A stretch of DNA of 64,000 nucleotides from Melioribacteraceae bacterium (GCA_016342755.1 JAEINS010000018.1:19279-83278); one strand, 5' to 3'; counted from the first letter of the stretch, positions 11,177 to 34,324 are shown. Numbers and translations: made by a program. Notes: generated by a model not told the origin, from the sequence alone.

Positions 11177-11202
11177 TTTGTTCTCCAATAATTATTAAAC
11201 TT

Positions 11203-14919: not shown

Positions 14920-15057
14920 CTAAGATTGTTCATAAAAATCTTTTGCTAAAGGGGAAAAATTGGAATCGTCTATTTCAACTAATTGTGTTGTTGAACAACT
15001 AAATAAACCAATTAGGTGAAGTGAAATAAATATATTTTGTGCTATTAGTTTTAACAT
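14920..15057 (-). CDS. Candidate small ORF (45 aa), lipoprotein-like, 54 nt downstream of ispH
   Basis: Hand translation: MLKLIAQNIFISLHLIGLFSCSTTQLVEIDDSNFSPLAKDFYEQS*. GAGG lies 5 nt upstream of the ATG, and there is a lipobox-like LFSC. Confidence 0.3.
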   Translation of the reverse strand: MLKLIAQNIFISLHLIGLFSCSTTQLVEIDDSNFSPLAKDFYEQS

Positions 15058-15111
15058 CTCGCCCTCATCCAAGTTACAAGATTTCTCACTTTGTTCGAAA
15101 TGACATTAATA

Positions 15112-16597: not shown

Positions 16598-16627
16598 GCG
16601 CAAGTTTTTATAAATTACATCGTCAAA
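16598..16627 (+). promoter_or_regulatory. ECF-type promoter motif, copy 1 (autoregulatory, upstream of the ECF sigma gene)
   Basis: GCGCAAGTTTTTATAAATTACATCGTCAAA. CAAGT and CGTC starts are exactly 20 nt apart. It lies 51 nt upstream of the ATG. Confidence 0.65.
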
Positions 16628-16671
16628 GTGATTAGACAGTAAAAATAGAATAATTTCGTGGAATATATTAA

Positions 16672-17211
16672 ATGCATCTAGATTTTCAGGCAATTGTTGA
16701 AACAAATCAGGATAGGGTACGCAATACCTGTTTCCGGTTTGTAAATAATTTGGAAGATGCAGAAGATATTGCTCAGGAAGTTTTTGTCCAGGTCTATGAA
16801 TCTTTTTCACATTTTCGGGAAGAAGCAGAGCTTTCCACATGGATTTATAGAATTGCCGTAAATAAATCGCTCGATTTCTTACGTAAATCAAAGCGTAAAA
16901 AAAGATTCGGGCAGATGGTATCTTTGTTTGGTTTTGGTGAAGAAGAGGAAGAAATTAGAATTCCTTCGAGTAGTAATCCGCAGCGTGAACTTGAAGATGA
17001 TGAACGAAAGCAGATTCTATATATGATAATCAGAAAGTTGCCGGAAAATCAGCAGACTGCTTTAACACTTAGTAAGCTTGAAGGATTTAACAATAAAGAA
17101 GTTTCAAAGATAATGGAGATGTCACTTTCAGCGGTTGAAGCTTTAATGTTCAGAGCAAAAAAAAATCTTGAAAAAAAATTAAGAAGTTATTTTGAAAAAG
17201 AAAAAACCTAA
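16672..17211 (+). CDS. ECF-subfamily RNA polymerase sigma-70 factor
   Basis: Region 2 (AEDIAQEVFVQVY...STWIYRIAVNKSLDFLR) and region 4 (LPENQQTALTLSKLEGFNNKEVSKIMEMSLSAVEALMFRAKKNL). Confidence 0.9.
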   Translation: MHLDFQAIVETNQDRVRNTCFRFVNNLEDAEDIAQEVFVQVYESFSHFREEAELSTWIYRIAVNKSLDFLRKSKRKKRFGQMVSLFGFGEEEEEIRIPSSSNPQRELEDDERKQILYMIIRKLPENQQTALTLSKLEGFNNKEVSKIMEMSLSAVEALMFRAKKNLEKKLRSYFEKEKT

Positions 17212-17259
17212 CACAAGTTTTTAGAAAATATATCGTCCAATAAAATAAGGACAAGAATT

Positions 17260-17583
17260 ATGAATAAAAAAAATACTATAGAAGAAGAAATTCAAAAAAC
17301 ATTAGCACAGTTTGATAATGCGGAAAGGCTTCCATCAAATCCTTATTTTTATACTCGTGTAAAACAAAGGATTGATGAGAGAAAAAAAACGCACAGAACT
17401 TTTTTTGCTGTTCTGAAACCAGCAACACTAGCTCTTCTATTATTAATAAACGTCAGCACAGTTACATGGTATCTTAATGGAAGTACCACTACCAGTGTTG
17501 ATACAAAATCAGAGTTAGCTGAAATTTTATCAGGTGATCTAAATTTAGAAGTTGAAGAAACAGATCTATTTAATATAGAGTAG
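17260..17583 (+). CDS. Putative single-pass anti-sigma factor
   Basis: 107 aa with one central TM helix. Assigned by position immediately downstream of the ECF sigma gene. No ZAS motif is present. Confidence 0.5.
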   Translation: MNKKNTIEEEIQKTLAQFDNAERLPSNPYFYTRVKQRIDERKKTHRTFFAVLKPATLALLLLINVSTVTWYLNGSTTTSVDTKSELAEILSGDLNLEVEETDLFNIE

Positions 17584-17591
17584 GAAAAATC

Positions 17592-18149
17592 ATGGATGTA
17601 TTTAAACGAAATCGAAATCTAATTATCACAATTATTGTTCTGGTACTGTTTAATCTTGTAACAGTTACGCTTTTGATAATTGGTAAACCGCCTCATCCCA
17701 TGGGGGAAGAAAATATGGGAGAAATAAAGGATAATAATAGACGTCTTGAACATCTTTTAAAGGTTGAGCTAAGTTTTACAAATGAACAGGCAAAGGAATA
17801 TATAAAACTCAGAAAAGAACATCGTGATGGAGCTATATCTATTAACGCTGAACTTAAGAGACTTAGAACACAAATGTTTGATGAAGTTTTAAGTACTAAT
17901 CTTTCACCAACTCTTTCAGATTCATTGCTAAACCTAACTTTAGAAAAACAAGCCGAAATTGAAAAATTAACCTTTAATCATTTTTTAGATTTGAAAAACT
18001 TATGTGATCCAGAACAGCGGAAAAAACTCAAATTATTAATGTTCCAAATAGAAGGTCCGCCTCCGGGTAGAAATTTAAAAGGATTACCTCTTGATGGAAA
18101 TCATGACAGACCTCCGCCACCGCCAAACGGTGAGAGACCTCCAAACTAA
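17592..18149 (+). CDS. Membrane-anchored Spy/CpxP-like (periplasmic heavy-metal-sensor family) protein with a Pro-rich tail
   Basis: N-terminal TM helix, LTxxQ-like motifs (FTNEQAKEY, DPEQRKKL), C-terminal GPPPGRN...DRPPPPPNGERPP. It is the third gene of the sigma operon. Confidence 0.6.
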   Translation: MDVFKRNRNLIITIIVLVLFNLVTVTLLIIGKPPHPMGEENMGEIKDNNRRLEHLLKVELSFTNEQAKEYIKLRKEHRDGAISINAELKRLRTQMFDEVLSTNLSPTLSDSLLNLTLEKQAEIEKLTFNHFLDLKNLCDPEQRKKLKLLMFQIEGPPPGRNLKGLPLDGNHDRPPPPPNGERPPN

Positions 18150-18170
18150 GATTAAGATTATAAAACTAAA

Positions 18171-18199
18171 CCCTTCCCAATTATGAGAAGGGTTTTTTT
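18171..18199 (+). terminator. Intrinsic terminator of the ECF sigma operon
   Basis: CCCTTC-(10-nt loop)-GAAGGG followed by TTTTTTT. Confidence 0.7.
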
Positions 18200-18216
18200 A
18201 TGAAAAATGCAGCACA

Positions 18217-18246
18217 CCGCAAGTTATTTTCAGAGATGCCGTCTAA
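18217..18246 (+). promoter_or_regulatory. ECF-type promoter motif, copy 2
   Basis: CCGCAAGTTATTTTCAGAGATGCCGTCTAA. Same 20-nt spacing. It lies 40 nt upstream of the 18286 ATG. Confidence 0.6.
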
Positions 18247-18285
18247 CTTATTAAACCACTTAAAATATATTATAAGGAGGTTGTT

Positions 18286-18468
18286 ATGAAATACGCTAAT
18301 TTGATGTGGAGTGCTTTTATTAAAGACTTAAAAGAATTTAGTTCTCAGTTAGAAGAATTTCAAAAAGAAGTAATGGATCAAAGAATAAAAGAGAATTTGA
18401 ATTTAGACAACACATATCTATTACTTGCGGAGGTTATTAAAAAAGAATATCGATTACAAAACAAGTAG
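18286..18468 (+). CDS. Hypothetical 60-aa helical protein
   Basis: Strong SD (AAGGAGG), and it sits downstream of motif copy 2. I recognised no family. Confidence 0.5.
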   Translation: MKYANLMWSAFIKDLKEFSSQLEEFQKEVMDQRIKENLNLDNTYLLLAEVIKKEYRLQNK

Positions 18469-18510
18469 ATATAACTAATAAAAAATCAAATAATACAATT
18501 GGAGAATAAA

Positions 18511-18927
18511 ATGAAAAGGACTCAAAAATTAACAGATAACATTCAACTACTTGTCATTTCACTATTAATAATTTCCAGCAATATTTTTGCTCAGCAAAGA
18601 GGACAGCAAAACGAACCTCCACGAACACCAGATATAACTGGATTAGTTGATGAATTGGGTTCAAAACTTTCATTATCAAGCGATCAAAAATCCACGGTTA
18701 AAGATTTGTTCATTTCTCATTTTGAAGAAGTTGAAGGTTTAATGAAATCAGACCGTGGAGAAAGAGATGCAATGCATACTAAAATGCAAAAACTTAAAAG
18801 TAATTTAGATAATGCTATAATTGCGCTGCTTAATGATGATCAAATTGAGGCATTCAAAGAACTTCAGAAAAATCAGAATAAACAAAGAAATAATAGACAA
18901 CCAAGAAATCAGAGACCACAAAGATAA
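18511..18927 (+). CDS. Hypothetical secreted protein with an LTxxQ-like motif and a basic Q/N/R/P-rich tail
   Basis: Signal peptide, LSSDQKSTVKDLF, DDQIEAFKELQ, tail NNRQPRNQRPQR. I prefer the ATG at 18511, preceded by GGAGA, over the ORF-track TTG at 18499. Confidence 0.6.
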   Translation: MKRTQKLTDNIQLLVISLLIISSNIFAQQRGQQNEPPRTPDITGLVDELGSKLSLSSDQKSTVKDLFISHFEEVEGLMKSDRGERDAMHTKMQKLKSNLDNAIIALLNDDQIEAFKELQKNQNKQRNNRQPRNQRPQR

Positions 18928-18943
18928 AATTGACGCACCCCGA

Positions 18944-18995
18944 CACTGCAATCCAAATCCCTCCCTTTTCTTTTAGGATTGTAGTGTTTTATTTT
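18944..18995 (+). terminator. Intrinsic terminator
   Basis: CACTGCAATCC ... GGATTGTAGTG (one G:U pair), followed by TTTTATTTT. Confidence 0.6.
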
Positions 18996-19050
18996 ACAAA
19001 TCAACTCACCAAATATTCCCCATAAACTCATGAATTAAATTTCACACTTA

Positions 19051-19080
19051 CCACAAGTAATTTCAAAAAACAGCGTCTTA
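19051..19080 (+). promoter_or_regulatory. ECF-type promoter motif, copy 3 (upstream of the ferredoxin operon)
   Basis: CCACAAGTAATTTCAAAAAACAGCGTCTTA. Same spacing. It lies 44 nt upstream of the ATG. Confidence 0.6.
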
Positions 19081-19117
19081 AAGAGTAGAGCAGATTATAA
19101 AATTGAGGATATGAAAA

Positions 19118-19333
19118 ATGTCAATTCAAAGTATTAACGGATGTATAGGTTGTGAAACATGCATAAAAATGTGCCCGACTGATGTAATTCGTTTAGATCC
19201 CAAAACAAAAAAAGCCGTTATAAAATATCCGGCTGATTGCCAAATTTGTCATTTGTGCAGAATGTATTGTCCGGTTGATGCAATCACAATTTCACCGGAA
19301 AAATCAATTCCAGTTATTGTATCGTGGGGATAA
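19118..19333 (+). CDS. 2x[4Fe-4S] ferredoxin
   Basis: 71 aa with two CxxCxxCxxxCP motifs (CIGCETCIKMCP, CQICHLCRMYCP). Confidence 0.9.
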   Translation: MSIQSINGCIGCETCIKMCPTDVIRLDPKTKKAVIKYPADCQICHLCRMYCPVDAITISPEKSIPVIVSWG

Positions 19334-19334
19334 T

Positions 19335-19955
19335 ATGAAAAAGTATAATCTAACTTTTATATCAATAGTTTTTTTAGTACTCCCAATATTCCTATTGCTG
19401 ATGGGAGATTTTAAAGAGAGAACATTACTAAAGGATTCAATCTCAATTTTAACAATTATTGCTTTCTGTTTAATGTCCGGACAATTATTTCTTAACCGGA
19501 ATTACAGAAAAATCAGACATGATATGAAGATGAGCAGCGTTGTTAAAATTCATAAGTTTATTGGATATTCCTTTTTAGTTGTTCTTTTAGTTCACCCTTT
19601 TCTGATTGTTGTTCCAAGATTTTTTGAATCGGGTGTTGAACCAATTGATGCATTTATGACTATTATAACTACGTTTAACAGTCTGGGTGTTATACTTGGA
19701 ATAATAGCCTGGTGTTTACTGCTGGTTTTAGGAATCACATCAATGTTTCGTAATAAACTTAAATTTAGTTATAAAACATGGCGTGTATTCCATGGAATCC
19801 TGGCATTTGCCTTTATAGTATTTGCTGTTTGGCATGTTATTGATCTTGGTCGTCATATAAATTTTTTAATGTCTGTATATCTAATTGCTATAGCTTTCTT
19901 CGGTATCGTACTCCTACTAAATACTTACTTATTTAATTCATCAACAAGGGTTTGA
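19335..19955 (+). CDS. Ferric-reductase-like (MsrQ/YedZ-type) transmembrane haem-binding protein
   Basis: About 6 TM helices with conserved His in the helices (HKFIGY...LLVHPF; VFHGILAF...VWHV). I prefer the ATG at 19335, 1 nt after the ferredoxin stop. The ORF-track start at 19275 would overlap the ferredoxin gene. Confidence 0.65.
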   Translation: MKKYNLTFISIVFLVLPIFLLLMGDFKERTLLKDSISILTIIAFCLMSGQLFLNRNYRKIRHDMKMSSVVKIHKFIGYSFLVVLLVHPFLIVVPRFFESGVEPIDAFMTIITTFNSLGVILGIIAWCLLLVLGITSMFRNKLKFSYKTWRVFHGILAFAFIVFAVWHVIDLGRHINFLMSVYLIAIAFFGIVLLLNTYLFNSSTRV

Positions 19956-19959
19956 GAAA

Positions 19960-21714
19960 ATGACTATACAAAGTGGAATTAATAAAATAACACGACGGAA
20001 TTTTTTAGCCTTGGCCGGAGGCACCGTAGGAATGGCGGCTCTAGCTTCAATGGGTGTTCCGGCAAGTTTTATAGAAAATAATCTGGAGATAGATTTAGAT
20101 AAGATAGATCATCAGGAAAATGAAGCTGATGTGTTAGTAATTGGCGGAGGAATGGCTGGTTTATTTGCGGCAGTAAAGGCACACGATGCCGGAGCAAAAG
20201 TTATGCTTGTTTCAAAAGGCAGTTTAGGTTCATCAGGGCAAACACCCTTTGCTAAAGGGATATTTGCGTATGATAAAGATTTAACCAACGTAAGTCTTGA
20301 TGAATTTGTTGATCAAGTATCAAGATCGGCAATAGGGACTAATAATCCGGTCTATACAAAACAAATGGCTGAACACTCACTGGCCAGAGTTACTGATCTT
20401 AGAGAATGGGGATTTTTTGATTCACCGCTTTATAACAATTCTTTCAACAAACCAATTAAAGAACGTAACATTCCGGTAATGGAACGAATTACAATTACAC
20501 ATCTCATTAAAGAAAATGATCGTATTGCTGGTGCAGCCGGATTTAGTGTTGATGAGGAGAAAGTACATTTTTTTAACGCTAAAAGTGTAATACTCTGTAC
20601 CGGAGCCGGCGGATTTAAACCAAACGGATTTCCAATTTGTGACTTAACACATGATGGAACTGTTATGGCTTATAACATAGGTGCAAAAGTAACCGGGAAA
20701 GAATGGAACGATGGTCATCCGGGACAATCGATAAATGCGGCCTCCTGCTTTGATGGCTGGCATGGGATGTTTGAAAGGAAGCCTGGTTTAACAAGTGTAG
20801 AGATACATCACGACTTAGGCGTAGATATGAATTATATGGCATACATGAATGGAAATCCTTTGCAGATGGGGCCTCCCGGGATGAATAATCAGAAAGGAAG
20901 TACTGGAGGACCTTATCGCCCAGAAGAGTTTAGTAGAAAAGAACCACCGGGAGGAGATAACAAACCACCAGGAAGAGAACAACCAAAAGAAGGCGGAGCG
21001 CCTCCTGGAATGGGCGGAACAGTAGTTGGCGGTTCTTCAGCCGGGATGTCAATTCATAAATCGGAAGGATTGGTTCCAATCAATGATAAATGTGAATCTA
21101 CAATTCCCGGACTATATGCAGCCGGTGATGCATTAGGTTCATATATGGCTGGGGCAATCTATACACAGATAGGTTCATCACTAGCCGGATCAGCAGTACA
21201 GGGAGCTGTTGCCGCAGAAGCCGCGGCGAAATATAGCAAGTATATTGAATTCCAAAATATTTCTAAAAATGTCATGAATAAAATTGAAGAAGAAATACTT
21301 GCACCATTAAAAAGAGATGCAGGTTATAGTCCGGCCTGGGTAACACAAACTTTGCAAGGGATTATGATTCCCAACTTTGTATTATATATAAAGAAAGAAA
21401 GCATGTTAAAGGCGGCATTAGCATATATCGAAGAATTGAGAGATCACCATATGCCTATGTTAAAAGCAGCTGATATGCACGAACTTAGATTAGCCCATGA
21501 AACTAGGAACATGATTTTAAGTGCGGAAATGAAATTAAAAGCTTCAATCATGCGTACAGAAAGCCGCTGTAGTCATTACCGCCTCGATTATCCAGATATG
21601 GATAATGAAAACTGGCAAGCATGGATAAACATTTATAAAGGATCTGATGAAACAATGCAATTTGAAAAACAACCTTTTGACTCATGGCCGAATGGTAAAA
21701 GGATTATTGTTTAA
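19960..21714 (+). CDS. Tat-exported FAD-dependent oxidoreductase (fumarate reductase/AprA-like flavoprotein fold)
   Basis: Twin-arginine signal TRRNFLALAGG, FAD dinucleotide motif DVLVIGGGMAGLFAA, late FAD motif GLYAAGDA, C-terminal ESRCSHYR block. Confidence 0.8.
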   Translation: MTIQSGINKITRRNFLALAGGTVGMAALASMGVPASFIENNLEIDLDKIDHQENEADVLVIGGGMAGLFAAVKAHDAGAKVMLVSKGSLGSSGQTPFAKGIFAYDKDLTNVSLDEFVDQVSRSAIGTNNPVYTKQMAEHSLARVTDLREWGFFDSPLYNNSFNKPIKERNIPVMERITITHLIKENDRIAGAAGFSVDEEKVHFFNAKSVILCTGAGGFKPNGFPICDLTHDGTVMAYNIGAKVTGKEWNDGHPGQSINAASCFDGWHGMFERKPGLTSVEIHHDLGVDMNYMAYMNGNPLQMGPPGMNNQKGSTGGPYRPEEFSRKEPPGGDNKPPGREQPKEGGAPPGMGGTVVGGSSAGMSIHKSEGLVPINDKCESTIPGLYAAGDALGSYMAGAIYTQIGSSLAGSAVQGAVAAEAAAKYSKYIEFQNISKNVMNKIEEEILAPLKRDAGYSPAWVTQTLQGIMIPNFVLYIKKESMLKAALAYIEELRDHHMPMLKAADMHELRLAHETRNMILSAEMKLKASIMRTESRCSHYRLDYPDMDNENWQAWINIYKGSDETMQFEKQPFDSWPNGKRIIV

Positions 21715-21727
21715 TATAAATGTTTTT

Positions 21728-21755
21728 GTGAGGAGCGGGCTAGCCCGTTCCCCAC
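21728..21755 (+). terminator. GC-rich stem-loop after the flavoprotein gene (no T tract)
   Basis: GTGAGGAGCGGGC-ta-GCCCGTTCCCCAC, 14 nt past the stop codon. Confidence 0.4.
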
Positions 21756-21858
21756 ATTACATACCTTTATCTAACCATATTTACTGCCGCTTCACTAATA
21801 AATAATCCCTTCCCGCGTTCATCGCAAAATCTACTACGCTTATAATTTTTACAATTCT

Positions 21859-21888
21859 GCACAAGTTATTCCTAAAAACATCGTCTTA
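21859..21888 (+). promoter_or_regulatory. ECF-type promoter motif, copy 4 (upstream of CotH-1)
   Basis: GCACAAGTTATTCCTAAAAACATCGTCTTA. Same spacing. It lies 50 nt upstream of the ATG. Confidence 0.6.
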
Positions 21889-21931
21889 GTATCTAGGAGA
21901 CAGTTAGAATCAATTATATATGAGGTAAACC

Positions 21932-23335
21932 ATGTTAAAATTAAAAAGCATTTTAGCACTTTTATTCTTCACATTTCTATTATTGAATTGCGAGGATACC
22001 GTAACGGATACCGGGGATGTATCTTCTAAAATTGAGTATACAACAGATCTCGATCTATCCGACTGGTCTGAAACAACACATGGCAAAGGTGCCGACCCTG
22101 ACTATGATATTGTATTTCCCCAAGACAAAGTAAATAGAATTGATATTGTAATTACTGAAAATAACTGGGATGTTATGCTTGAAGATATGACATCAAAATA
22201 CGGCAGTTTTGGAGGAAGCTCAGGAAGGCCTGCAATGCCTAGCGATTCAGATGAGAATCCTATTTATGTACCATGTTCATTCTACTTTAACAATGTACAA
22301 TGGTATCAGGTTGGGATTAGATTTAAAGGGAATTCGAGTTTAACAACTGCCTGGCAGCAGGGTATTTGGAAATTACCGTTCAGACTACATTTTGACAAAT
22401 TTGAAGATGATTATCCGGAAATAAATAACCAGAGATTTTACGGATTCAAGGAACTTGCTCTATCAAGTAATTATGATGATAACTCACTACTTCGAGAAAA
22501 AGTTGCTCCGGAAATATTTAGAGATTTTGGAGTTGCTGCCCCGCAGACAGCATTTTACAGAGTGTACATTGATAATGGTGATGGCCCCATCTACTTTGGT
22601 CTTTATACAATGGTTGAAAAAGTAGAGGATACAATGTTAGATGATCAGTTTTCTGATAACGATGGAAACCTTTATAAACCTGAAGGAACCGGAGCAAGCT
22701 TTGCAGTAAATTCTTTTAATACTGCCGACTTCGAAAAAAAGACAAATGAAGAAACAGATTGGTCGGATATAGAAAACTTATTTGATGTTTTGCATTCTTC
22801 TACAAGAACAAGCGATGCCTCAGTTTGGAGAAACAATCTGGAAGCAACATTTAATGTTGATGTATTTTTAAAATGGCTTGCTGTTAATAACACAATTCAG
22901 AATTGGGATACCTACGGCAGAATGACTCATAATTATTATCTGTACAATAATCCTAAAGACAATCGGTTAACCTGGATTCCATGGGATAATAATGAAGCTT
23001 TCCAAACTGGCAAACAAAGTGGTGCAATATCAATAACTTGCAATGATGTAAGCAATAGCTGGCCATTAATAAGATATTTAATAGATGATGAAGTATATCT
23101 AGCTAAATATAAAGCTAACTTAAAACAAGTTATAGAAATGGCTTTTGAACCATCGAATATGATTTCCAAGTATCAGGACTATTCAAATCTCATTCGTGAA
23201 CATGTTGTTGGTGAAAACGGAGAAAAAAACAACTACTCATTTTTAAACTCAGACTCTGAATTTGATTCAGCTGTAAATTATTTAATCTCGCATGTAAACA
23301 GTAGAAATAGTGTAGTTAAAAACTACGTGGACTAA
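21932..23335 (+). CDS. CotH-family (atypical protein kinase fold) lipoprotein
   Basis: Lipobox LLNCE. CotH-like blocks: VGIRFKGNSS, YGFKELALSSNYDDNSLLREK, FGLYTMVEKVEDTMLD, GNLYKPEG, NYYLYNNP......IPWD.N. Confidence 0.8.
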   Translation: MLKLKSILALLFFTFLLLNCEDTVTDTGDVSSKIEYTTDLDLSDWSETTHGKGADPDYDIVFPQDKVNRIDIVITENNWDVMLEDMTSKYGSFGGSSGRPAMPSDSDENPIYVPCSFYFNNVQWYQVGIRFKGNSSLTTAWQQGIWKLPFRLHFDKFEDDYPEINNQRFYGFKELALSSNYDDNSLLREKVAPEIFRDFGVAAPQTAFYRVYIDNGDGPIYFGLYTMVEKVEDTMLDDQFSDNDGNLYKPEGTGASFAVNSFNTADFEKKTNEETDWSDIENLFDVLHSSTRTSDASVWRNNLEATFNVDVFLKWLAVNNTIQNWDTYGRMTHNYYLYNNPKDNRLTWIPWDNNEAFQTGKQSGAISITCNDVSNSWPLIRYLIDDEVYLAKYKANLKQVIEMAFEPSNMISKYQDYSNLIREHVVGENGEKNNYSFLNSDSEFDSAVNYLISHVNSRNSVVKNYVD

Positions 23336-23368
23336 TTTCATCTAACTATAGATAATACAAAAAAGGAA

Positions 23369-23398
23369 GTGCAAGTTTTCTTAACAAATGTCGTCTTA
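23369..23398 (+). promoter_or_regulatory. ECF-type promoter motif, copy 5 (upstream of the MFP-like/VTC/DUF4956/beta-helix operon)
   Basis: GTGCAAGTTTTCTTAACAAATGTCGTCTTA. Same spacing. It lies 46 nt upstream of the TTG start. Confidence 0.6.
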
Positions 23399-23437
23399 TA
23401 ATTTAACGACAGAATGAAAAATTAAAAGGTTTACAAA

Positions 23438-24496
23438 TTGAATAAGAGAACCCAAATAATATTACTCATTGCAACTAGTTTTGCTTTACTGTGTTCATTC
23501 TATTTGCCAATTGAAGTTCCCTATACTATAAGCGGTATCGCGAAGATACTTCCTAATAAACAGTTAATATTATCGCGTGGCTCGGATGGTGACATTTTAA
23601 CAAATACAGTAAATCATATTAGCGGGGTCAACAATTCTTATCAGCTAACATCCTTTGAACGTGGTGAATCAATGTTGTTAAATCTAACTCCAACACTGCG
23701 CAATGGACAGATAGTTGAGAAAGGTGATACACTTGGTGTTATCTATTCAAGCAGACAACAGGAAGCATTAATTGAGCTTAATGGTGAACTAGGAATTTTA
23801 AAAGCTACTCTTAAATCAAATATGAGTGGTGAAAAGAAAACTGAAGTAAAAGAAGCAGAAGAAAGAATGGAGATGGCAAAATCTGAATATCATAAACAAT
23901 CACAAATTGTTGAAAGATTAAATGCTCTTATGCAAAGAGATTTAATTGCTAAAGAAGAGTACCAAACAGCTTCAGATGAGCTTATAGTTCTTTCGAAAGC
24001 AATAAACGTACGCAAAGCAGAGTTAGAATCATGTTTGAGCGGAGTAAAAGCTGAAGAAATAAATACACTTAAAAAGCAAATAAACGCTATTGAGAATAAG
24101 ATTTCTTTCTTGAACAAAAAGGCAGCAAAACAAAATTCAATTACTGCTCCTTTTAGCGGAAGAATAGATAGATCTTTTTCAAACGATACACTATTTACAT
24201 TATCAAACTTTGATAGCGGAATTGCTTTCATACCAGTTCCATTAAAAGAAGCTTCCTATATTGAAACTAATGAGTTAGTATCATTTGAGTTAACAAATAC
24301 TAATTCAGCTTTATCTGGAACTGTACAAACGAAACAGCCGGTAATGCAATTTATTGGCGGGAAACAATGTTTGATAATATTAGCTCAGATAGATAATTTA
24401 TCAAATAATTTTATTTCCGGAATAATAGCTCAAGCTCAAATTCAATGTGAGCCGGTTCAACTCGATACATTTATTATAAGAACTATTTTTAACTGA
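23438..24496 (+). CDS. HlyD/membrane-fusion-protein-like periplasmic adaptor (TTG start)
   Basis: N-terminal TM helix, lipoyl-like VEKGDTLGVIYS, long coiled-coil hairpin, ITAPFSGRI beta-barrel motif. Confidence 0.65.
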   Translation: MNKRTQIILLIATSFALLCSFYLPIEVPYTISGIAKILPNKQLILSRGSDGDILTNTVNHISGVNNSYQLTSFERGESMLLNLTPTLRNGQIVEKGDTLGVIYSSRQQEALIELNGELGILKATLKSNMSGEKKTEVKEAEERMEMAKSEYHKQSQIVERLNALMQRDLIAKEEYQTASDELIVLSKAINVRKAELESCLSGVKAEEINTLKKQINAIENKISFLNKKAAKQNSITAPFSGRIDRSFSNDTLFTLSNFDSGIAFIPVPLKEASYIETNELVSFELTNTNSALSGTVQTKQPVMQFIGGKQCLIILAQIDNLSNNFISGIIAQAQIQCEPVQLDTFIIRTIFN

Positions 24497-24505
24497 GGTG
24501 AGAAC

Positions 24506-25288
24506 ATGGCTTCAAGATACGAATACAAATATTTAGTGCCGAATGAATTAGCGGATGTACTGAGAGCAGAAATGGCTCCATTTGTTGAGTTAGATAATTT
24601 TGCAAAAAAACATGAAACTGGTCAATATACTGTAAGAAGCATCTACTTCGATTCTCCAAGGTTTACATGTTATAAAGAAAAATATGACGGAATTAAAATT
24701 AGAAATAAATATAGAATTAGAGGCTATGATACTTTAGCAGATGATAGCATAATATTTTTAGAAATAAAACATAAAGACACAAATTGCATTTCTAAAAGCC
24801 GGGCACCGCTTTACTATTCTGATGTATACAAAACATTAGATGCTAGAAGAATAGATGAGTTTATCCTTTCGTTTAGCGGTAATGGAATTGAAAAAAAAGA
24901 TGCTCAAAAATTTCTATATCATTATTATAAAAATAATTTACGTCCGGCTGTGCTGGTTATTTATGATCGTGAAGCTTTTTGGGGGAAATTTGATACTTCA
25001 CTCAGATTCACATTTGATAAAAATTTACGGAGTGTGATTTTCCCGAACTTACAAAATCTATATGATGAAGAAAGAGCAAAACAGACAATGGTAAACAACT
25101 TTGTCTTTGAAGTAAAGTTTTATGGAACTTTACCAGCATGGATAAAATCGATTATAAGTAAATATCGTTTAAACAGACAAGCGATTTCCAAGTATACATT
25201 ATCATTAGAAACTCATTCGGAATTTAACAACCAACGTTTTGCAACAAGTAACTTGATGATTAATCATCGGGAGTGTTCTTATGTTTAA
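24506..25288 (+). CDS. VTC-domain protein (polyphosphate polymerase / triphosphate-tunnel domain)
   Basis: 260 aa. N-terminal RYEYKYLV, then repeated basic/acidic beta-strand motifs (VRSIYFDS, KIRNKYRIRGY, FLEIKHK, FVFEVKF) typical of CYTH/VTC tunnel proteins. Confidence 0.7.
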   Translation: MASRYEYKYLVPNELADVLRAEMAPFVELDNFAKKHETGQYTVRSIYFDSPRFTCYKEKYDGIKIRNKYRIRGYDTLADDSIIFLEIKHKDTNCISKSRAPLYYSDVYKTLDARRIDEFILSFSGNGIEKKDAQKFLYHYYKNNLRPAVLVIYDREAFWGKFDTSLRFTFDKNLRSVIFPNLQNLYDEERAKQTMVNNFVFEVKFYGTLPAWIKSIISKYRLNRQAISKYTLSLETHSEFNNQRFATSNLMINHRECSYV

Positions 25289-25955
25289 TGAATTTCAAAG
25301 CTTTAACATGTTCCCAGTTACAATATCAGAAATTGTAACAAACGTAATTGTTGCATTGATATGCGGATTATTTATCGCCCACATATATAAAAAATCATAT
25401 CGCGGTGCTGGCTATTCCGCGGCATTTGTTAATTCTATGATTATACTTACTATAATAACCGCTATTGTAATAATGGTTATTGGTAATAACCTTGCGCGCG
25501 CGTTTGGTCTGGTTGGTGCAATGTCAATCATTCGTTTTAGAACTGCCGTTAAAGATACACAAGATATTGTATTTCTTTTCTTCGGATTAGCAATAGGAAT
25601 GGCAGCAGGTGTTGGTTATCATAAAATGGCAATCTTTGGATCTGTATTTGTCGGGATAATTATTTTAATACTTACAAAGTCTAACTTTACCTCTACCAGA
25701 CAAGATGAATACTTACTGCAATTTGCATACGCTGCAAAGGGAGATACATCTACTCCGTATCTACCAATTCTAAATAAATTTTGTAGACGGCATAATATTA
25801 TCAATGCAAAAACTATTGAGAACCAAGGTATTATGGAACTCTCATATTATGTCAAATTCAAAAATATATCACGTAATCCTGAGTTTATAAAAGCATTAGA
25901 TAATACACATGGCGTAAAAAATATAAATCTCTTTTTTGATGAAGAGCAAATCTAA
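25281..25955 (+). CDS. DUF4956-family membrane protein
   Basis: Four or five TM helices and the signature block ARAFGLVGAMSIIRFRTAVKDTQDIVFLFFGLAIGMAAG. Overlaps the VTC gene by 8 nt. Confidence 0.7.
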   Translation: MFNEFQSFNMFPVTISEIVTNVIVALICGLFIAHIYKKSYRGAGYSAAFVNSMIILTIITAIVIMVIGNNLARAFGLVGAMSIIRFRTAVKDTQDIVFLFFGLAIGMAAGVGYHKMAIFGSVFVGIIILILTKSNFTSTRQDEYLLQFAYAAKGDTSTPYLPILNKFCRRHNIINAKTIENQGIMELSYYVKFKNISRNPEFIKALDNTHGVKNINLFFDEEQI

Positions 25956-25966
25956 AGGAGGACAAA

Positions 25967-27652
25967 ATGTATAACAAAATATATTCGCTATTGATTCCGT
26001 TTCTAATGATAACTGTATTTGCCGCATGCGAAACCACAACAGAACCGGAAGAGGATACTACAGAAACCGCTGCTGAAATTGTTCAAGACGCTGAAAACCA
26101 TAACGATGAAGATGATTACACATGGAACGAAGGCGACGAAGTTAATGTTATTTTAGAAGACAACAATATTTTAATTACTGGGAATGGTGCTTCTGCGACT
26201 GATAATAGTGTTACAATAACTGCTGAAGGAACTTACAATTTCAGCGGCACTCTTAGTGACGGACAAATAATTGTTAATAGTGAAGATGATGAAATTGTAC
26301 GTCTTGTCTTAAATGGAGTAAATATCAATTGTGCAAACAGTGCGCCTATTTACTTTAAAAATGCTGATAAGGGAATGATTGTTCTAACCGAAAATACAGA
26401 AAATTATATATCTGATGGAACTTCCTATATCTTTGATGATTCTGAAAACAAGGAACCAAACGCAGCTATATTCTGCAAAACCGATCTAACAATTAGTGGG
26501 GAAGGTTCTTTAACTGTTAAAGGAAATTTCAATGATGGAATAGTTAGTAAAGATGGATTGATAATTACTTCTGGAACTATCAATGTAAATGCAGTGGATG
26601 ATGCTATTAGAGGAAAAGATTATCTGGTTATTTATAACGGGAATTTGACTCTTGATGCAGATGGTGTTGGGTTAAAATCAGATAATACTAATGATGCGTC
26701 ACTCGGATACATTACAATTGAAAATGGTGTTATAAATATTTCATCTGGCGGTGAAGGAATAGAAGCTGAAAAAGATGTTGCGATAAGTTCTGGAGAAATT
26801 ACAATATCCTCATCTGGAAAAGGAATAAACGGAATTGTTAATACAGAAATTGGCGGTGGTAATATAAATATTACATCTGTTGATGATGCAATCCATTCTA
26901 ATGGAACTGTAACTATAAATAACGGTACTATTACTATCTCATCAAATGATGACGCGATTCATGCTGATTATGACTTGGTTATCAACGATGGTTATATAAA
27001 CATTACCAAATCGTATGAAGGTATTGAAAGCAGCAACGGAAATATCACAATAAATGGCGGAGAAATTCATCTTATATCAAGTGATGATGGATTTAATCTA
27101 GCTGCTAGCGGCAGTGTGGAACCCGGCTCTTCAGCAGGCAACTACTATTTAAATATTAATGGTGGTTATATTGCAGTAAATGCCAGTGGTGACGGTGTTG
27201 ACGCAAATGCTTCGGTTGTTATGTCAGACGGCTATTTAATAGTAAGCGGATCAACAGCGAGTAATAATAGTGCTTTAGATTATGATGGTTCATTTGCTAT
27301 GAATGGCGGATTCATGGTAGCAACCGGAACTTCCAGAATGGCTGAAGCACCTAGCACCAGTTCAAGTCAGAATTCTATTCTTATAAATTTCAATACAACT
27401 TTAAGTGCAGGTTCAATTATATATATTGAAACTGAATCTGGAGAAGAAATAGTTGCTTTAAGTCCTGTGAAATCTTATCAATCAATAGCCTTGTCTTCCC
27501 CATTGCTTGAAAAAAACAAATCCTATACTGTTTACACCGGAGGCAGTTACTCAGGTACAATAACTGATGGAGTTTATTCTGGCGGATCCTATACATCCGG
27601 TACAAACTATACTAGTTTTACAATTTCCAGCACTGTAACATCAATTAACTAA
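25967..27652 (+). CDS. Cthe_2159/DUF4353-like right-handed beta-helix lipoprotein ('carbohydrate-binding domain' family)
   Basis: Lipobox VFAACE, an acidic linker, then repeated coils (DDAIRGKD, DDAIHSNGTVTINNGTITISSNDDAIHADYDLVINDGYINITKSYEGIES, GGEIHLISSDDGFN). Confidence 0.7.
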   Translation: MYNKIYSLLIPFLMITVFAACETTTEPEEDTTETAAEIVQDAENHNDEDDYTWNEGDEVNVILEDNNILITGNGASATDNSVTITAEGTYNFSGTLSDGQIIVNSEDDEIVRLVLNGVNINCANSAPIYFKNADKGMIVLTENTENYISDGTSYIFDDSENKEPNAAIFCKTDLTISGEGSLTVKGNFNDGIVSKDGLIITSGTINVNAVDDAIRGKDYLVIYNGNLTLDADGVGLKSDNTNDASLGYITIENGVINISSGGEGIEAEKDVAISSGEITISSSGKGINGIVNTEIGGGNINITSVDDAIHSNGTVTINNGTITISSNDDAIHADYDLVINDGYINITKSYEGIESSNGNITINGGEIHLISSDDGFNLAASGSVEPGSSAGNYYLNINGGYIAVNASGDGVDANASVVMSDGYLIVSGSTASNNSALDYDGSFAMNGGFMVATGTSRMAEAPSTSSSQNSILINFNTTLSAGSIIYIETESGEEIVALSPVKSYQSIALSSPLLEKNKSYTVYTGGSYSGTITDGVYSGGSYTSGTNYTSFTISSTVTSIN

Positions 27653-27847
27653 ATATTTTTTTGCGGACTAAAAAAGATAATGATCTTAAAATAAGACCAT
27701 CCTCGTATTGGTAAAAATATTATTAAAGATTATTAAAGATCTAGCTTAAATACCTAGCCTTTTTTTTTATTTGAAATAAAGAGATCAGAATAATTGTCTA
27801 AAGTTATAAAGTGATAATACGATTATATTTTTTACATGGAGTTGGAA

Positions 27848-29335
27848 ATGAAATCAGAAAGAAAAAACAAAATAATTAAAACTATTATAATGCTGTTTTT
27901 TAGTTGTGTAACACTTTATGCACAATCTTATAAAATAGTTGATACGGGACAAAAAACTTTTTACAGTGATAAAAACATTATCAGTGAACCTTCTTCTGAA
28001 GATGATTTCTTTGGTCAGGATGCAAACTATAATGGAAACCAGCCATCATACACCGATAACGGCGTCGGAACTGTTACAGATAATGTTACTGGATTAATAT
28101 GGCAGAAATCAATGGATGAAAAAATATCTTTCGATGAAGCCTTTATTAAAGCAGATTCTTTAAGTCTGGCTAATTATACTGATTGGAGAGTTCCGACACT
28201 TAAAGAGCTCTATTCCCTTATTCAGTTTACAGGGCAAGTTTCTGGCGCAACTGCTATATCAATGTTTATTGATACTAATTATTTTATTCAACCATTAGGA
28301 AACACCAATATTGGTGAGCGCGAAATTGATGCACAGACATGGTCTTCTACAGAATATGTTGGAAGAACTATGAATAATGATGAAACTGTATTTGGTGTAA
28401 ACTTTGTTGATGGTAGAATTAAAGGATATCCACCAGGTACAGGCTCTTCAAATACAATGTATTTCCGAATGGTTAGAGGAAATATTGACTATGGGAAAAA
28501 CAACTTTGTTGATAATGAAGACAATACAATTAGTGATCTTGCTACTGGTTTAATGTGGCAAAAAGCTGATGATGGCATAGCTAGGAATTGGAATGAATCA
28601 CTTACCTATGCAGAAACTTCTGAACTAGCCGAATACGATGACTGGCGCTTGCCAAATGCTAAAGAATTACAAAGTATTGTTGATTATACCAGATCTCCTC
28701 AAACAACAAATTCACCGGCAATCGATCCCATTTTTGAAACAACTGAGATAAATGATCCTGATGGAAATTCCGGACATTATCCATTTTTCTGGACGAGCAC
28801 AACTCATCTTGATGGTGTGAATCCATATTCAGGAGCTGCATATATTGCTTTTGGTGAAGGACAAGGAGAAATGAACGGAAATCTATTGGATGTTCATGGA
28901 GCCGGTTGCCAAAGAAGTGATCCTAAAAGTGGAAATATCAATGATTACCCGCAATTCTTTGGACCTCAGGGAGATGTAAGGTATGTTTACAATTATGTTC
29001 GACTAGTTCGAAATATAGATAACACATCAACTGATATTAAAGATGATCAATCAAATACTTCCGAAGTTCCCAAAAAATTTGAGTTGAAACAAAACTATCC
29101 TAATCCGTTTAACCCAAGTACTCAAATAACTGTAAGTATTCCAGAGAGCGGAAACTATACTCTTAAAGTTTATAACGTTTTAGGTCAGGAAGTTGCAAAG
29201 TTATTAAGTGATGAAATTTCAGCAGGAATTCATAATTTCAATTTTGATGCAGCAAAACTTACTTCAGAAATTTATTTTTACAACTTTAGAGGAAGTGATT
29301 TTAATCAGACAAAAAAGATGATGCTGATAAAATAA
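27848..29335 (+). CDS. DUF1566 (Lcl C-terminal-like) repeat protein with a T9SS C-terminal sorting domain
   Basis: Two DWR(V/L)P..KEL motifs and C-terminal NYPNPFNPST...KKMMLIK. I prefer the ATG at 27848, preceded by GGAG, over 27836. Confidence 0.75.
   Translation: MKSERKNKIIKTIIMLFFSCVTLYAQSYKIVDTGQKTFYSDKNIISEPSSEDDFFGQDANYNGNQPSYTDNGVGTVTDNVTGLIWQKSMDEKISFDEAFIKADSLSLANYTDWRVPTLKELYSLIQFTGQVSGATAISMFIDTNYFIQPLGNTNIGEREIDAQTWSSTEYVGRTMNNDETVFGVNFVDGRIKGYPPGTGSSNTMYFRMVRGNIDYGKNNFVDNEDNTISDLATGLMWQKADDGIARNWNESLTYAETSELAEYDDWRLPNAKELQSIVDYTRSPQTTNSPAIDPIFETTEINDPDGNSGHYPFFWTSTTHLDGVNPYSGAAYIAFGEGQGEMNGNLLDVHGAGCQRSDPKSGNINDYPQFFGPQGDVRYVYNYVRLVRNIDNTSTDIKDDQSNTSEVPKKFELKQNYPNPFNPSTQITVSIPESGNYTLKVYNVLGQEVAKLLSDEISAGIHNFNFDAAKLTSEIYFYNFRGSDFNQTKKMMLIK
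29069..29335 (+). repeat. T9SS CTD-coding repeat, copy A
   Basis: Closely matches 33006-33272 at the nucleotide level, including an identical 32-nt run caaaactatcctaatccgtttaacccaagtac. Confidence 0.8.
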
Positions 29336-29362
29336 TAGCACACAGGTGTTAATTAAACTATA

Positions 29363-29399
29363 ATATACAGCCAGTTGTTTTTAACAACCGGCTGTATAT
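29363..29399. terminator. Bidirectional terminator hairpin between convergent genes
   Basis: 17-bp stem with one mismatch and a 3-nt loop: ATATACAGCCAGTTGTT-ttt-AACAACCGGCTGTATAT. Confidence 0.65.
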
Positions 29400-29406
29400 A
29401 AATTAA

Positions 29407-30594
29407 TTATAAAGCCAATTTGTAGATATTAATCATATCATTTACACTGGTTGGTATAATGCTGGCAATTTTATCTTCTTCCGGATTGCCAAACATACGC
29501 ATTACATCTTCAGCCATACGTTCAAATTTTTCATCAGTAACATTCATATCGGATAATTTGTAATACATTCCAACTCTTTCGAACCATTCAATTACTTTTG
29601 GAGCAAGCAATTTTGCCGCCGCTAAATCATCTTCTTCTTTAACGTCAAAAATCCTGCGGGCTAATTTTGCCCATCTGCCCGGTAAATTTTCAGCAAAATA
29701 CTCTAGATATGGCGGAATAACAATGGCCATACCACGCCCGTGCGCAATATCATAGTGTCCGCTTAACGGCATTTCAATTGAGTGCATCGGAATTGTTCCC
29801 ATTCTGCCTAAAGCCTGAATACCCTGCCAGCCAAATATTGAACATAATGCAAGAGTTCCTCTGGCTTCAATATCTTTTGGGTTTATAATAAGTTGATCGA
29901 GAGTATCTCTTAAAGTTAAAATCATACCTTCAGTTAATCTATCAGCAAATTCTGATAAATCAGGCGATGACAAATATCTTTCAATTAGATGTGAAAAGAT
30001 ATCAATAGCACTATCTTTTGTAATTGATAATGGCAATGTTGCCAATACTTCAGGATCAATTATCGCAACTTTTGGAATTCTGTATTCTGACCGGCTAAAA
30101 CTTTTTTCTTTAGTTTCCCAATTTGTAAGAACTCCGCCTGCGTTAACTTCGGAACCTGCAGCAGAAACTGTAGGAATAGCGACAATTGGATACGCGCCTG
30201 AATATTCTTTTGGTTTTCTATCGCCTAATACAACATAATCCCAGCAAGATCCACCACTGAAAGCTGTTGCGGCAATATATTTAGAACCGTCAATTACACT
30301 TCCGCCGCCAAGAGCAACAATACAGTCACAGCCAGATTCTTTAAAAAGTTTAATTCCTTCATCAATAGTTGTCACACGCGGATTTGGTTCAATCGCTTCG
30401 TAAATCACATAATCAATATTATTAGATTTAAGGATATCGATAGTTTTGTCGATTAAAGGTGCAAAAGCTTCATTCCTTTCGTAAGTAGCCAAAAATACTT
30501 TTTTTCCGTATGGTTTAACAAGATCACCTAATTCGGATAATCTACCAGGACCATAAACTAAATTTGTCGTAAAGTTCCATTCAAAATTGTTCAT
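29407..30594 (-). CDS. Iron-containing (group III) alcohol dehydrogenase
   Basis: GGGSVIDGSKYIA motif and a His-rich metal site (H..ERY, H....H.....HG). Confidence 0.85.
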   Translation of the reverse strand: MNNFEWNFTTNLVYGPGRLSELGDLVKPYGKKVFLATYERNEAFAPLIDKTIDILKSNNIDYVIYEAIEPNPRVTTIDEGIKLFKESGCDCIVALGGGSVIDGSKYIAATAFSGGSCWDYVVLGDRKPKEYSGAYPIVAIPTVSAAGSEVNAGGVLTNWETKEKSFSRSEYRIPKVAIIDPEVLATLPLSITKDSAIDIFSHLIERYLSSPDLSEFADRLTEGMILTLRDTLDQLIINPKDIEARGTLALCSIFGWQGIQALGRMGTIPMHSIEMPLSGHYDIAHGRGMAIVIPPYLEYFAENLPGRWAKLARRIFDVKEEDDLAAAKLLAPKVIEWFERVGMYYKLSDMNVTDEKFERMAEDVMRMFGNPEEDKIASIIPTSVNDMINIYKLAL

Positions 30595-30856
30595 AATACC
30601 ATCTCTTTATATTATTTTTTAATAATTACTTTTAGTTAGTAGTTCTTAAAACGCTGTTTTAATACTACTAGCTCTATACAAGTTTTGGAAATAACTCTAA
30701 ACGAAACTTAGAATCCAAAACTCCGCTTTTCAAAAATAATTAAAATTTTGATAAAATAATACATCTGTCTTCAGATATATGTTATCATACATGTTTGTTT
30801 GGAGCAAATATGTTAAAACAAAGTGACTTCTTTCTTATTAATTATTTTTATTTCGG

Positions 30857-30886
30857 GCACAAGTTTTATTATAAAAGATCGTCTTA
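30857..30886 (+). promoter_or_regulatory. ECF-type promoter motif, copy 6 (upstream of CotH-2)
   Basis: GCACAAGTTTTATTATAAAAGATCGTCTTA. Same spacing. It lies 68-80 nt upstream of the start. Confidence 0.6.
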
Positions 30887-30959
30887 CTTAAAAAGCATGA
30901 ATCTAATGACTGTTACTTTCATTAGCAATTAAACTATTATGAACTAAGTGAGAATTAAA

Positions 30960-33373: not shown

Positions 33374-34324
33374 ATGAAAGCACAAGTTAAATTAAAATAT
33401 GTCGTCAAAGATTATATGATAGAAAACAATTCCCAAAATACTGCGATCAAAAAACCTATTACCGGGAACTATTTCCCTTTTCAAAAAAATATTCTTTTAA
33501 TGGAATTGCATGAATATATAAAACTTACAGGAGAGTCTTTTTTTGAGGGGCATAATACTAACATCAATAGAATATTATTTATCTGTAAGGGTAATGGAAC
33601 CTTTTGTATAGAAAAGACCGAATACAAATTTAATTCTAAATCCGTTATAACAATTGCAAAAGGTGATTTGCATAAACTCAATTTCACCGGAGAAACTACC
33701 GGTTACGTATTACTTTTCCCGGATAACCAGACAACTGATGCTAATAATTATTTCCATGCATTTTTAGATTTTACTTTTTTTTATTATTCACTTAAACCGG
33801 CTCCATTAAACTTAACCAATGAAAAATTCACAAAATTTTTAAGTATTATAGAATCAATTAAAAATACTGTGAATAATATTACGGATATAGCTAAGGTTAG
33901 TATTTCGTATAGCTTAGTAAAAAAACTATTGCTTGAGATACAATATTCTAAAATGAACATTCAAAATCTTTTAGAATCATTTGATTTGATATTACTAAAT
34001 AATTTCAATCAACTTTTAATATCAAAAATCAACATTTCTAGAAAAGCAGAATATTATACCAAACAATTAAATGTTTCTTCAACAAAATTAAATTCCACAA
34101 CAAAACTTTATTTAGACAAAAAGATTAAAGAAATAATTAATGCCAGAATTATATTCGATTCTAAAAAAATGCTTTCTGATACAAACTTTTCCATTAAAGA
34201 AATTAGTTACAATATGGGCTTTACTGATCCAACAAATTTTAATAAGTTTTTCAAAAAAATAACTTTAAGTACTCCTAAAGAATTTAGGAATAAATGTTAC
34301 ACTGAACATTTTAACCATAATTAG
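33374..34324 (+). CDS. AraC-family transcriptional regulator
   Basis: N-terminal cupin-like domain and C-terminal double HTH (....SIKEISYNMGFTDPTNFNKFFKK). The start codon is uncertain. Confidence 0.75.
   Translation: MKAQVKLKYVVKDYMIENNSQNTAIKKPITGNYFPFQKNILLMELHEYIKLTGESFFEGHNTNINRILFICKGNGTFCIEKTEYKFNSKSVITIAKGDLHKLNFTGETTGYVLLFPDNQTTDANNYFHAFLDFTFFYYSLKPAPLNLTNEKFTKFLSIIESIKNTVNNITDIAKVSISYSLVKKLLLEIQYSKMNIQNLLESFDLILLNNFNQLLISKINISRKAEYYTKQLNVSSTKLNSTTKLYLDKKIKEIINARIIFDSKKMLSDTNFSIKEISYNMGFTDPTNFNKFFKKITLSTPKEFRNKCYTEHFNHN

Follow-up and report, generated by a model that had tools for sequence, protein, structure and literature searches.

Predicted sigmaE-like promoters tie a CotH/VTC/DUF4956 gene cluster to an extracytoplasmic function sigma factor in a Melioribacteraceae genome

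In a 64,000-nucleotide stretch of a Melioribacteraceae (Ignavibacteriota) metagenome-assembled genome (MAG; GCA_016342755.1, JAEINS010000018.1:19279-83278), hereafter the window, we find eight copies of a bipartite DNA motif, the first of which lies upstream of a gene for a sigma factor of the extracytoplasmic function (ECF) class (16672..17211, plus strand). These sites are very probably sigmaE-like ECF promoters, which RNA polymerase carrying that sigma factor would read within the circuit proposed below. The mechanism is that of a standard ECF regulon, familiar from textbooks and hence unsurprising, and it is the content that matters. New here are the CotH, VTC, and DUF4956 proteins among the targets, two additional sites, and conservation across phyla. 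An earlier reading of this DNA (the sequence-only reading) had proposed that the sigma factor directly drives six units. That proposal is supported in silico; recognition by the sigma factor, the anti-sigma and sensor roles, and the extents of the operons are what we infer from the sequence.

Eight copies of a bipartite motif

The six 30-mers from which the sequence-only reading started, at 16598, 18217, 19051, 21859, 23369, and 30857, are present exactly as it described them, with the starts of CAAGT and CGTC 20 nt apart in each. Its count of six is too low, as copies at 17214, between the sigma and anti-sigma genes, and at 33383, before an AraC-type gene, had been missed. Across the window, CAAGT-N15-CGTC has eight exact matches, starting at 16601, 17214, 18220, 19054, 21862, 23372, 30860, and 33383, all of them on the plus strand and within 16.6-33.4 kb, where 0.19 would be expected in 64 kb; none of 100 dinucleotide shuffles gave eight. 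Allowing one mismatch adds six scattered matches, against ~5 expected. With leave-one-out matrices, each of the eight sites scores 21 to 31.5 bits, while the best non-site on either strand scores 10.7 to 13.1 bits. An independent repeat search of the window also recovers the motif, as families D2 and D3.

The consensus is sCrCAAGTTTTt-N10-CGTCwwA. Compared pairwise, the eight sites share an identity of 0.78 within the -35 block and 0.79 within the -10 block, falling to 0.53 in the A/T-rich spacer; in the 40-nt flanks it is 0.33 to 0.36, compared to 0.28 for random sequence. As only the two blocks are conserved and the flanks are near random, the motif is bipartite rather than part of a longer dispersed repeat. 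In typical ECF promoters, AAC forms the -35 core and the -10 element contains CGT. The CGTC -10 block, a promoter hallmark invoked in the sequence-only reading, is found at all eight sites; the -35 core is AAG, not the canonical AAC, at all eight.

Motif 1 (16598..16627, GCGCAAGTT-N14-CGTCAAA) lies upstream of the sigma gene, 47 nt before the ATG, and motif 2 (17211..17240) sits in the 48-nt sigma/anti-sigma gap, 3 nt past the stop codon of the former gene and 22 nt short of the latter. Motif 3 (18217..18246) precedes a pair of genes for 60- and 138-aa proteins, motif 4 (19051..19080) a ferredoxin/flavoprotein operon, and motif 5 (21859..21888) the gene for the CotH-family protein CotH-1. Motif 6 (23369..23398) stands before an operon for a membrane-fusion protein (MFP), a VTC-domain protein, and a DUF4956 protein, motif 7 (30857..30886) before the gene for a second CotH protein, CotH-2, and motif 8 (33380..33409) before the AraC-type gene. 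All eight are on the plus strand and share the orientation of the downstream gene. Between CGTC and the start codon lie 22 to 64 nt at seven sites and 9 nt at the eighth (33383), which roughly fits the 40 to 80 nt given earlier. Every plus-strand unit of 16.6-34.3 kb other than the Lcl_C gene begins with one motif copy. Genes beyond this interval have unrelated housekeeping, efflux, and two-component functions (e.g., IspH, AcrB, and aconitase) and carry no motif. An Rfam search of 16-35 kb found no family, and a generic sigma-70 promoter scan of the region returned background levels (96 predictions versus 94.7 expected).

The sigma factor and its putative partner proteins

The 179-aa sigma factor is 100% identical to a Melioribacteraceae MAG protein and matches Pfam Sigma70_r2 (6e-19, residues 8-75) and Sigma70_r4_2 (5e-14, residues 114-166). 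Its domain set, regions 2 and 4 only, is that of the ECF (group 4) sigma factors, and it scores 102.8 bits against the NCBIfam model TIGR02937 (sigma70-ECF), which has a cutoff of 42.9. AlgU, RpoE, and SigW are the nearest solved structures. It is the sole ECF-type sigma factor in the window.

At position +1 (17260..17583, plus strand) is the gene for a 107-aa protein with a conserved cytoplasmic N terminus of ~46 aa, one transmembrane helix, and an outer tail of ~35 aa, which is kept at this position in all close relatives at 47 to 53% identity. From its position and topology, we infer that it acts as the anti-sigma factor. The gene at +2 (17592..18149, plus strand) encodes a 185-aa protein with a Pro-rich tail, which NCBI names "periplasmic heavy metal sensor" and which appears to be a membrane-anchored periplasmic CnrX/CpxP/Spy-like protein and putative sensor. 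Metal_resist (PF13801) is matched, weakly, by five of five members of the sensor family (best E value, 2.4e-6). The AlphaFold2 model (predicted local distance difference test score [pLDDT], 81.6) comprises an N-terminal transmembrane helix, a four-helix domain, and the disordered Pro-rich tail, and its top Foldseek matches in the PDB are CnrXs, NccX, Spy, CpxP, and ZraP, with target-normalized template-modeling scores of 0.70 to 0.78 and a probability of 1.0. Sequence searches of the PDB with the single sequence and with two profiles returned noise only, and it was the fold search alone that gave CnrX, Spy, and CpxP. The "CpxP-like" protein of the sequence-only reading is thus more exactly a membrane-anchored CnrX/NccX-like member of PF13801. 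Within the predicted periplasmic part of the family, the invariant polar residues are Q66, S109, E124, C138, and Q142; C138, in a K-x-L-C-x-P-E-Q context, is the single invariant Cys.

A hairpin with a T-run (18168..18195) forms a terminator that closes the sigma/anti-sigma/sensor unit. The sequence-only reading treated the three genes as a single operon; to this must be added that the anti-sigma and sensor genes also have their own predicted internal sigma-type promoter, motif 2.

Conservation of the motif in relatives

To place the motif in a wider setting, we collected 167 loci encoding homologues of the sigma factor (L001 and similar names below are labels of such loci). The set, 1.93 Mb scanned on both strands, consists of sigma homologues among the matches listed, mostly distant sigma factors of Bacteroidota and Verrucomicrobiota with few close relatives, plus close relatives retrieved individually. 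Loci were selected solely for encoding a sigma homologue, and the matrix was built from the window sites, with a threshold of ≥16 bits. Among the resulting 51 matches, 48 lie on the sigma strand (binomial p = 2e-11). The other three matches (L099:118, L100:212, and L112:324, minus strand) face away from the sigma gene at a position ~150 nt upstream, which on these short metagenome contigs indicates a divergent sigma-dependent unit.

The motif also becomes rarer as the sigma factor diverges. For this comparison, the threshold was set at the 99th percentile of background 210-nt windows (1% background). Where sigma identity is ≥55%, 8/12 loci carry the motif upstream of the sigma gene, and 8/12 carry it in the gap that follows the gene. 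The corresponding figures are 19/39 and 22/41 at 45 to 55% identity, 16/67 and 24/69 at 38 to 45%, and 8/42 and 6/43 below 38%. Strand bias, position enrichment, and decay with identity do not depend on the training of the matrix. The third position of the -35 core is G in 43/43 related sites, a count that is partly circular as the matrix is window trained.

A motif upstream of the sigma gene, as at 16601, is found in the loci of six relatives as well (L002, L003, L083, L086, L091, and L107), consistent with the autoregulation that had been proposed. Still more widespread is the motif between the sigma gene and the +1 gene (L001, L007-L010, L012, L016, L081, L083, L086, L087, L089, and L092), which is the most widely conserved motif position in the family and hints that the circuit had its ancestral core in feedback through the anti-sigma factor and sensor. 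L081 has only this internal motif of the two because its sigma gene follows a major facilitator superfamily (MFS) gene by 31 nt.

In Calditrichia (L081 and L085) and Ignavibacteriae (L001, L083, L086, and L087), the order is sigma factor, 108-aa protein, and PF13801 protein of ~175 to 191 aa. Downstream of this trio, the contigs carry genes for CotH with a lamin-tail domain (LTD) and a type IX secretion system (T9SS) sorting domain, DUF4890, Lcl_C, MacAB-like, and MFP-VTC-DUF4956 proteins. A motif precedes CotH in L081, L085, and L086, where it stands 49 nt upstream of the CotH-1 homologue; in L087 it is weak. CotH-2 orthologues, 60 to 68% identical, adjoin the sigma gene in L081, L085, and L087, with a motif in L081 and L085. 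It also stands 68 nt upstream of the orthologous MFP-VTC-DUF4956 operon in L085, before the DUF4890-like gene in L001, L081, L083, and L086, before Lcl_C in L086, and before a MacAB-like operon in L083 and L085. The connection drawn earlier between this regulator and the CotH/VTC system is thus borne out at the sequence level in other genomes, with the link apparently holding in Ignavibacteriota and Calditrichota. Likewise, strand bias, identity decay, and orthologous targets support in silico that the sigma factor at 16672 acts through this motif, although on eight units rather than the six proposed.

Bacteroidota retain the sigma/anti-sigma/sensor trio together with the motif, but true homologues of CotH or VTC are not found within 10 kb. 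The -10 core also varies by clade: Ignavibacteriota and Calditrichota have CGTC, several Bacteroidales have TGTC, and Cytophagales/Cyclobacteriaceae have CATC (variant sites in L005, L009, L010, L012, L016, L040, L106, L124, L125, and L149), while the -35 CAAGTTT remains constant. Such a clade-wise shift is as expected under coevolution with the cognate sigma factor, and the variants may offer a natural specificity-swap series for sigma region 2.

As a separate observation, two genes are split in L086, a 480-kb contig: the sensor gene (10947-11472; 99 plus 83 aa) and a CotH gene (14796-15741; 137 plus 189 aa). These frameshifts reflect either pseudogenization or long-read assembly errors.

Counterevidence and alternative readings

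Several observations weigh against sigma-driven promoters and the proposed circuit. All of the evidence is in silico, and the MAG represents an uncultured organism. At -35, the core departs from the near-universal AAC of ECF promoters. The 107-aa protein matches nothing in Pfam or NCBIfam, relaxed thresholds included, and has no anti-sigma domain. For the sensor, the fold match to CnrX has a weak Foldseek E value (~0.07), and the family alignment contains no invariant His. The matrix was trained on the window sites, which makes the consensus positions of the relatives partly circular. CotH has no detectable motif in L093 and one of only 12.8 bits in L087, and neither the ferredoxin/flavoprotein operon nor the AraC gene was found near the sigma gene in the relatives examined. 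Finally, the scan of this genome spans 64 kb, and the term "local regulon" used in the sequence-only reading holds for that stretch.

The last of the points from relatives bears on an alternative that we regard as unlikely, in which the regulon comprises the core units only (sigma, anti-sigma/sensor, DUF4890-like, CotH, and VTC) and the sites at 19054 and 33383 are recent or nonfunctional look-alikes. As no sigma-linked counterparts were found elsewhere, the window is the sole source for the ferredoxin/flavoprotein and AraC targets. Moreover, the AraC-type start codon lies 9 nt past CGTC, so a sigma-driven transcript from 33383 would be leaderless. The two sites nevertheless score like the others in leave-one-out tests (24.9 bits for 19054 and 31.1 bits for 33383), and both are correctly oriented and intergenic.

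We consider it quite improbable that the motif is an ECF promoter read by a paralogous ECF sigma factor elsewhere in the genome, with the sigma factor at 16672 being just another target. Paralogues are numerous in ECF-rich genomes (the first search gave at least 2,468 sigma homologues), and 64 kb of this genome is visible. However, the motif directly flanks orthologues of this particular sigma factor across three phyla, it becomes less frequent as sigma identity falls, its -10 variant follows the clade of the sigma factor, and the window contains no second ECF sigma factor.

Very little speaks for the motif being the operator of a DNA-binding regulator, such as the AraC-type protein encoded at 33416, rather than a promoter. 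An AraC-family gene does end the cluster and itself bears the motif, but the motif has no repeat structure, direct or inverted, is strictly oriented with the downstream gene at promoter distance from the start, and consists of two blocks that fit ECF -35/-10 geometry. In addition, the related loci in which the motif is retained lack the AraC gene. A chance product of A/T-rich intergenic composition (the spacer is A/T rich, and the intergenic DNA of the window is ~30% G+C) or a functionless remnant of a short dispersed repeat is effectively refuted by the excess over expectation and shuffles, the unrelated flanks, the lack of an Rfam family, and the presence of the motif at orthologous positions in other phyla. 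A dispersed repeat or miniature inverted-repeat transposable element was ruled out on the same unrelated flanks, and a SigP/T9SS regulon was ruled out as no NCBIfam equivalog was found at cutoff.

Proposed circuit

With sigma-dependent promoters as the preferred reading, the gene order suggests the following circuit. In the resting state, the 107-aa protein would hold the sigma factor at the membrane. The CnrX/CpxP-like protein at +2 would sense a periplasmic cue and, by analogy, relay it as in the CnrX-CnrY-CnrH system. Freed sigma factor would then transcribe its own gene in a positive loop, while the internal promoter would raise anti-sigma factor and sensor levels when the system fires, providing negative feedback and rapid shutoff. 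Further targets of the freed sigma factor would be the small-protein/DUF4890-like pair, the ferredoxin/MsrQ-like/Tat-flavoprotein electron chain, the two CotH proteins (a lipoprotein and a T9SS cargo), and the MFP-VTC-DUF4956-beta-helix operon, possibly including Lcl_C. The AraC-type regulator would also be transcribed and could add a second regulatory tier. In keeping with an envelope response, most targets bear signal peptides, lipoboxes, twin-arginine translocation (Tat) signals, or T9SS signals.

Comparison with known systems

The promoter geometry is that of Escherichia coli sigmaE and Pseudomonas aeruginosa AlgU. The E. coli rpoE promoter (Pecf02_2817) is GGAACTT-N16-TCTAA (PMC3817407 supplement), on which the GCAAGTT-N16-TCTAA of the window superimposes (xxAAxTT, 16 nt, and TCTAA/TCAAA after G). 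The systems further resemble each other in an apparently autoregulated sigma factor and in envelope-protein targets. They differ in that the window has an AAG core, a putative 107-aa anti-sigma factor without an RseA domain, neither RseB nor DegS/RseP in the context, a second predicted promoter in the gap after the sigma gene, and an unrelated regulon content (CotH and VTC).

As the +2 protein is CnrX/CpxP/Spy-like, the input module resembles CnrYXH of Cupriavidus metallidurans. In the Cnr system, sigma-dependent promoters drive the regulatory genes and the effector operon, and in the window, predicted sigma-type promoters likewise precede both kinds of genes. Shared features are an ECF sigma factor and a membrane-anchored periplasmic four-helix protein of the CnrX type, and a short single-pass protein with a small cytoplasmic domain is here the putative anti-sigma factor. 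The 107-aa protein matches CnrY-like proteins in size and topology (a cytosolic peptide of ~45 aa plus one transmembrane helix), a likeness that does not extend to demonstrated sequence similarity. In contrast to the order cnrY-cnrX-cnrH, the order here is sigma factor, anti-sigma factor, and sensor; the phyla are different, and no metal efflux pump is among the targets. CnrX binds Ni/Co through a His/Glu/His/Met ligand set. A sensor family without an invariant His argues, at the level of family conservation, against the same site, and Ni or Co is therefore probably not the cue. Together with the invariant C138, the lack of such a His hints that the cue is thiol/redox in nature or a protein contact, and not metal bound as in CnrX.

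By group, CnrYXH is ECF291 (Casas-Pastor et al. 2021, PMC7826278). Groups ECF281 and ECF290 have a PF13801 "heavy-metal resistance protein" at +2, with a zinc-finger anti-sigma factor (ECF281) or an RskA-like one (ECF290) at +1 (PMC7826278). The window shares the PF13801 protein two genes past the sigma gene and a membrane protein at +1, but that +1 protein is of neither described kind, as judged by the group descriptions. It has no Cys, one His, and no HxxxCxxC, and thus no zinc finger, and it gives no RskA or zf-HC2 match in Pfam.

Closer in taxonomy is ECF03 of Bacteroidetes, which, like the window, belongs to the Fibrobacteres-Chlorobi-Bacteroidetes (FCB) group and has a similar-looking promoter, exemplified by that of Bacteroides thetaiotaomicron ECF03_1198, TTAACTT-N13-CGTTCTAA (Rhodius et al. 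2013, PMC3817407). However, the sigma factors are only 30% identical, and ECF03 has an AAC -35 core and a CGTTC -10, where the window has CGTC.

For the targets, the nearest parallel is a cassette of cotH, polyphosphate polymerase (VTC), and DUF4956 genes that adjoins Gram-positive pel loci, with no function given (Whitfield et al. 2020, PMC7112168). The same three families cluster in the window. Here the host is a diderm of the FCB group, and the set is enlarged by an adaptor of the HlyD type, a beta-helix protein (Cthe_2159), Lcl_C, and a T9SS-sorted CotH; pel genes are lacking, and the cluster appears to be under a dedicated ECF sigma factor.

Significance of the gene content

CotH-family, VTC-domain, and DUF4956 proteins co-occur widely, and a shared predicted promoter here ties them to one sigma/anti-sigma/sensor module. 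In the literature searched, we found no paper linking an ECF sigma factor to CotH, VTC, or DUF4956, nothing on this system in Ignavibacteria or Calditrichia, and no assigned function for the CotH-VTC-DUF4956 cassette. The module thus offers a conserved regulatory handle on an uncharacterized cassette and, with its unusual AAG -35 core, a portable sigma/promoter pair for synthetic-biology toolkits.

It is possible, if rather doubtful, that the sigma/anti-sigma/CnrX-like module is a switch conserved in two phyla and dedicated to inducible extracytoplasmic machinery, in which VTC, its membrane partner DUF4956, and the HlyD-type adaptor supply the envelope with polyphosphate (or phosphoryl groups) that T9SS-secreted and lipoprotein CotH kinases use. 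If so, the orphan CotH-VTC-DUF4956 cassette, including the pel-linked versions, would phosphorylate the envelope or matrix and have a defined on-switch.

Predicted target units and neighboring genes

All genes below are on the plus strand unless noted. The unit after motif 3 (18286..18927) encodes a 60-aa protein (18286-18468) and a secreted 138-aa protein (18511-18927) related by homology to DUF4890/LTXXQ-like proteins. The latter is 31 to 38% identical to the products of motif-bearing genes that precede Lcl_C genes in L001, L081, L083, and L086; these homologues match DUF4890/LTXXQ weakly, and the 138-aa window protein itself has no Pfam match. Neither these two proteins nor a 135-aa protein encoded farther downstream belongs to a Pfam or NCBIfam family, even at relaxed thresholds.

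The operon after motif 4 encodes a 2x[4Fe-4S] ferredoxin (19118-19333), a Ferric_reduct/MsrQ-like heme-b membrane protein (19335-19955), and a Tat-exported flavin adenine dinucleotide (FAD) flavoprotein of the fumarate-reductase/AprA superfamily (19960-21714), as assigned by Pfam and NCBIfam and, for the flavoprotein, also by the Tat motif TRRNFL. A palindrome (21727-21756) lies downstream of this operon (19118..21714) and closes it, as the hairpins at 18168-18195 and 29363-29399 close theirs. The arrangement resembles MsrPQ-type periplasmic repair chains, with an MsrQ/YedZ-like partner and a flavoprotein in place of the molybdoenzyme.

CotH-1 (21932..23335; 467 aa) is a lipoprotein with a lipoprotein-type signal (LLNC) and a Pfam CotH match of 5e-70. 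The next operon (23438..29335) opens with the HlyD-type MFP gene (23438-24496), followed by genes for the VTC polyphosphate-polymerase-like domain protein (24506-25288), the DUF4956 membrane protein (25281-25955), and the Cthe_2159 beta-helix lipoprotein (25967-27652), all assigned by Pfam. The VTC-domain protein is distantly similar to the catalytic domains of yeast Vtc2/Vtc4 (E value, ~1e-3). The gene for a protein with Lcl_C and a T9SS tail (27836-29335; Pfam) is possibly the last of the operon; the 184-nt gap before it contains no motif. A strong hairpin (29363-29399), with a perfect 17-bp stem and a 3-nt loop, lies between the Lcl_C gene and a convergent minus-strand gene for an Fe-alcohol dehydrogenase and is probably a bidirectional terminator marking the end of the VTC unit.

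CotH-2 (30948..33272), whose actual start is probably the ATG at 30960, combines CotH, LTD, and a C-terminal T9SS sorting domain (Pfam). The AraC-family helix-turn-helix (HTH) regulator (33416..34324; 302 aa; Pfam HTH_18) starts at 33416 in the deposited entry MBI9072652.1; a mechanical open reading frame start (33374) and a later ATG (33500) differ from this annotation. Beyond it, 34412-37849 encodes the 135-aa LSDEQ (LTXXQ-like) protein, an outer membrane protein (OMP) beta-barrel, and a Plug/Porin_10 protein, all without the motif.

The sorting domains of the Lcl_C protein and CotH-2 are encoded by a 268-nt direct repeat (29067-29334 and 33004-33271) with 81% nucleotide identity. The repeat is far more alike than the rest of both genes, which suggests a recent exchange or conversion of the sorting domain.

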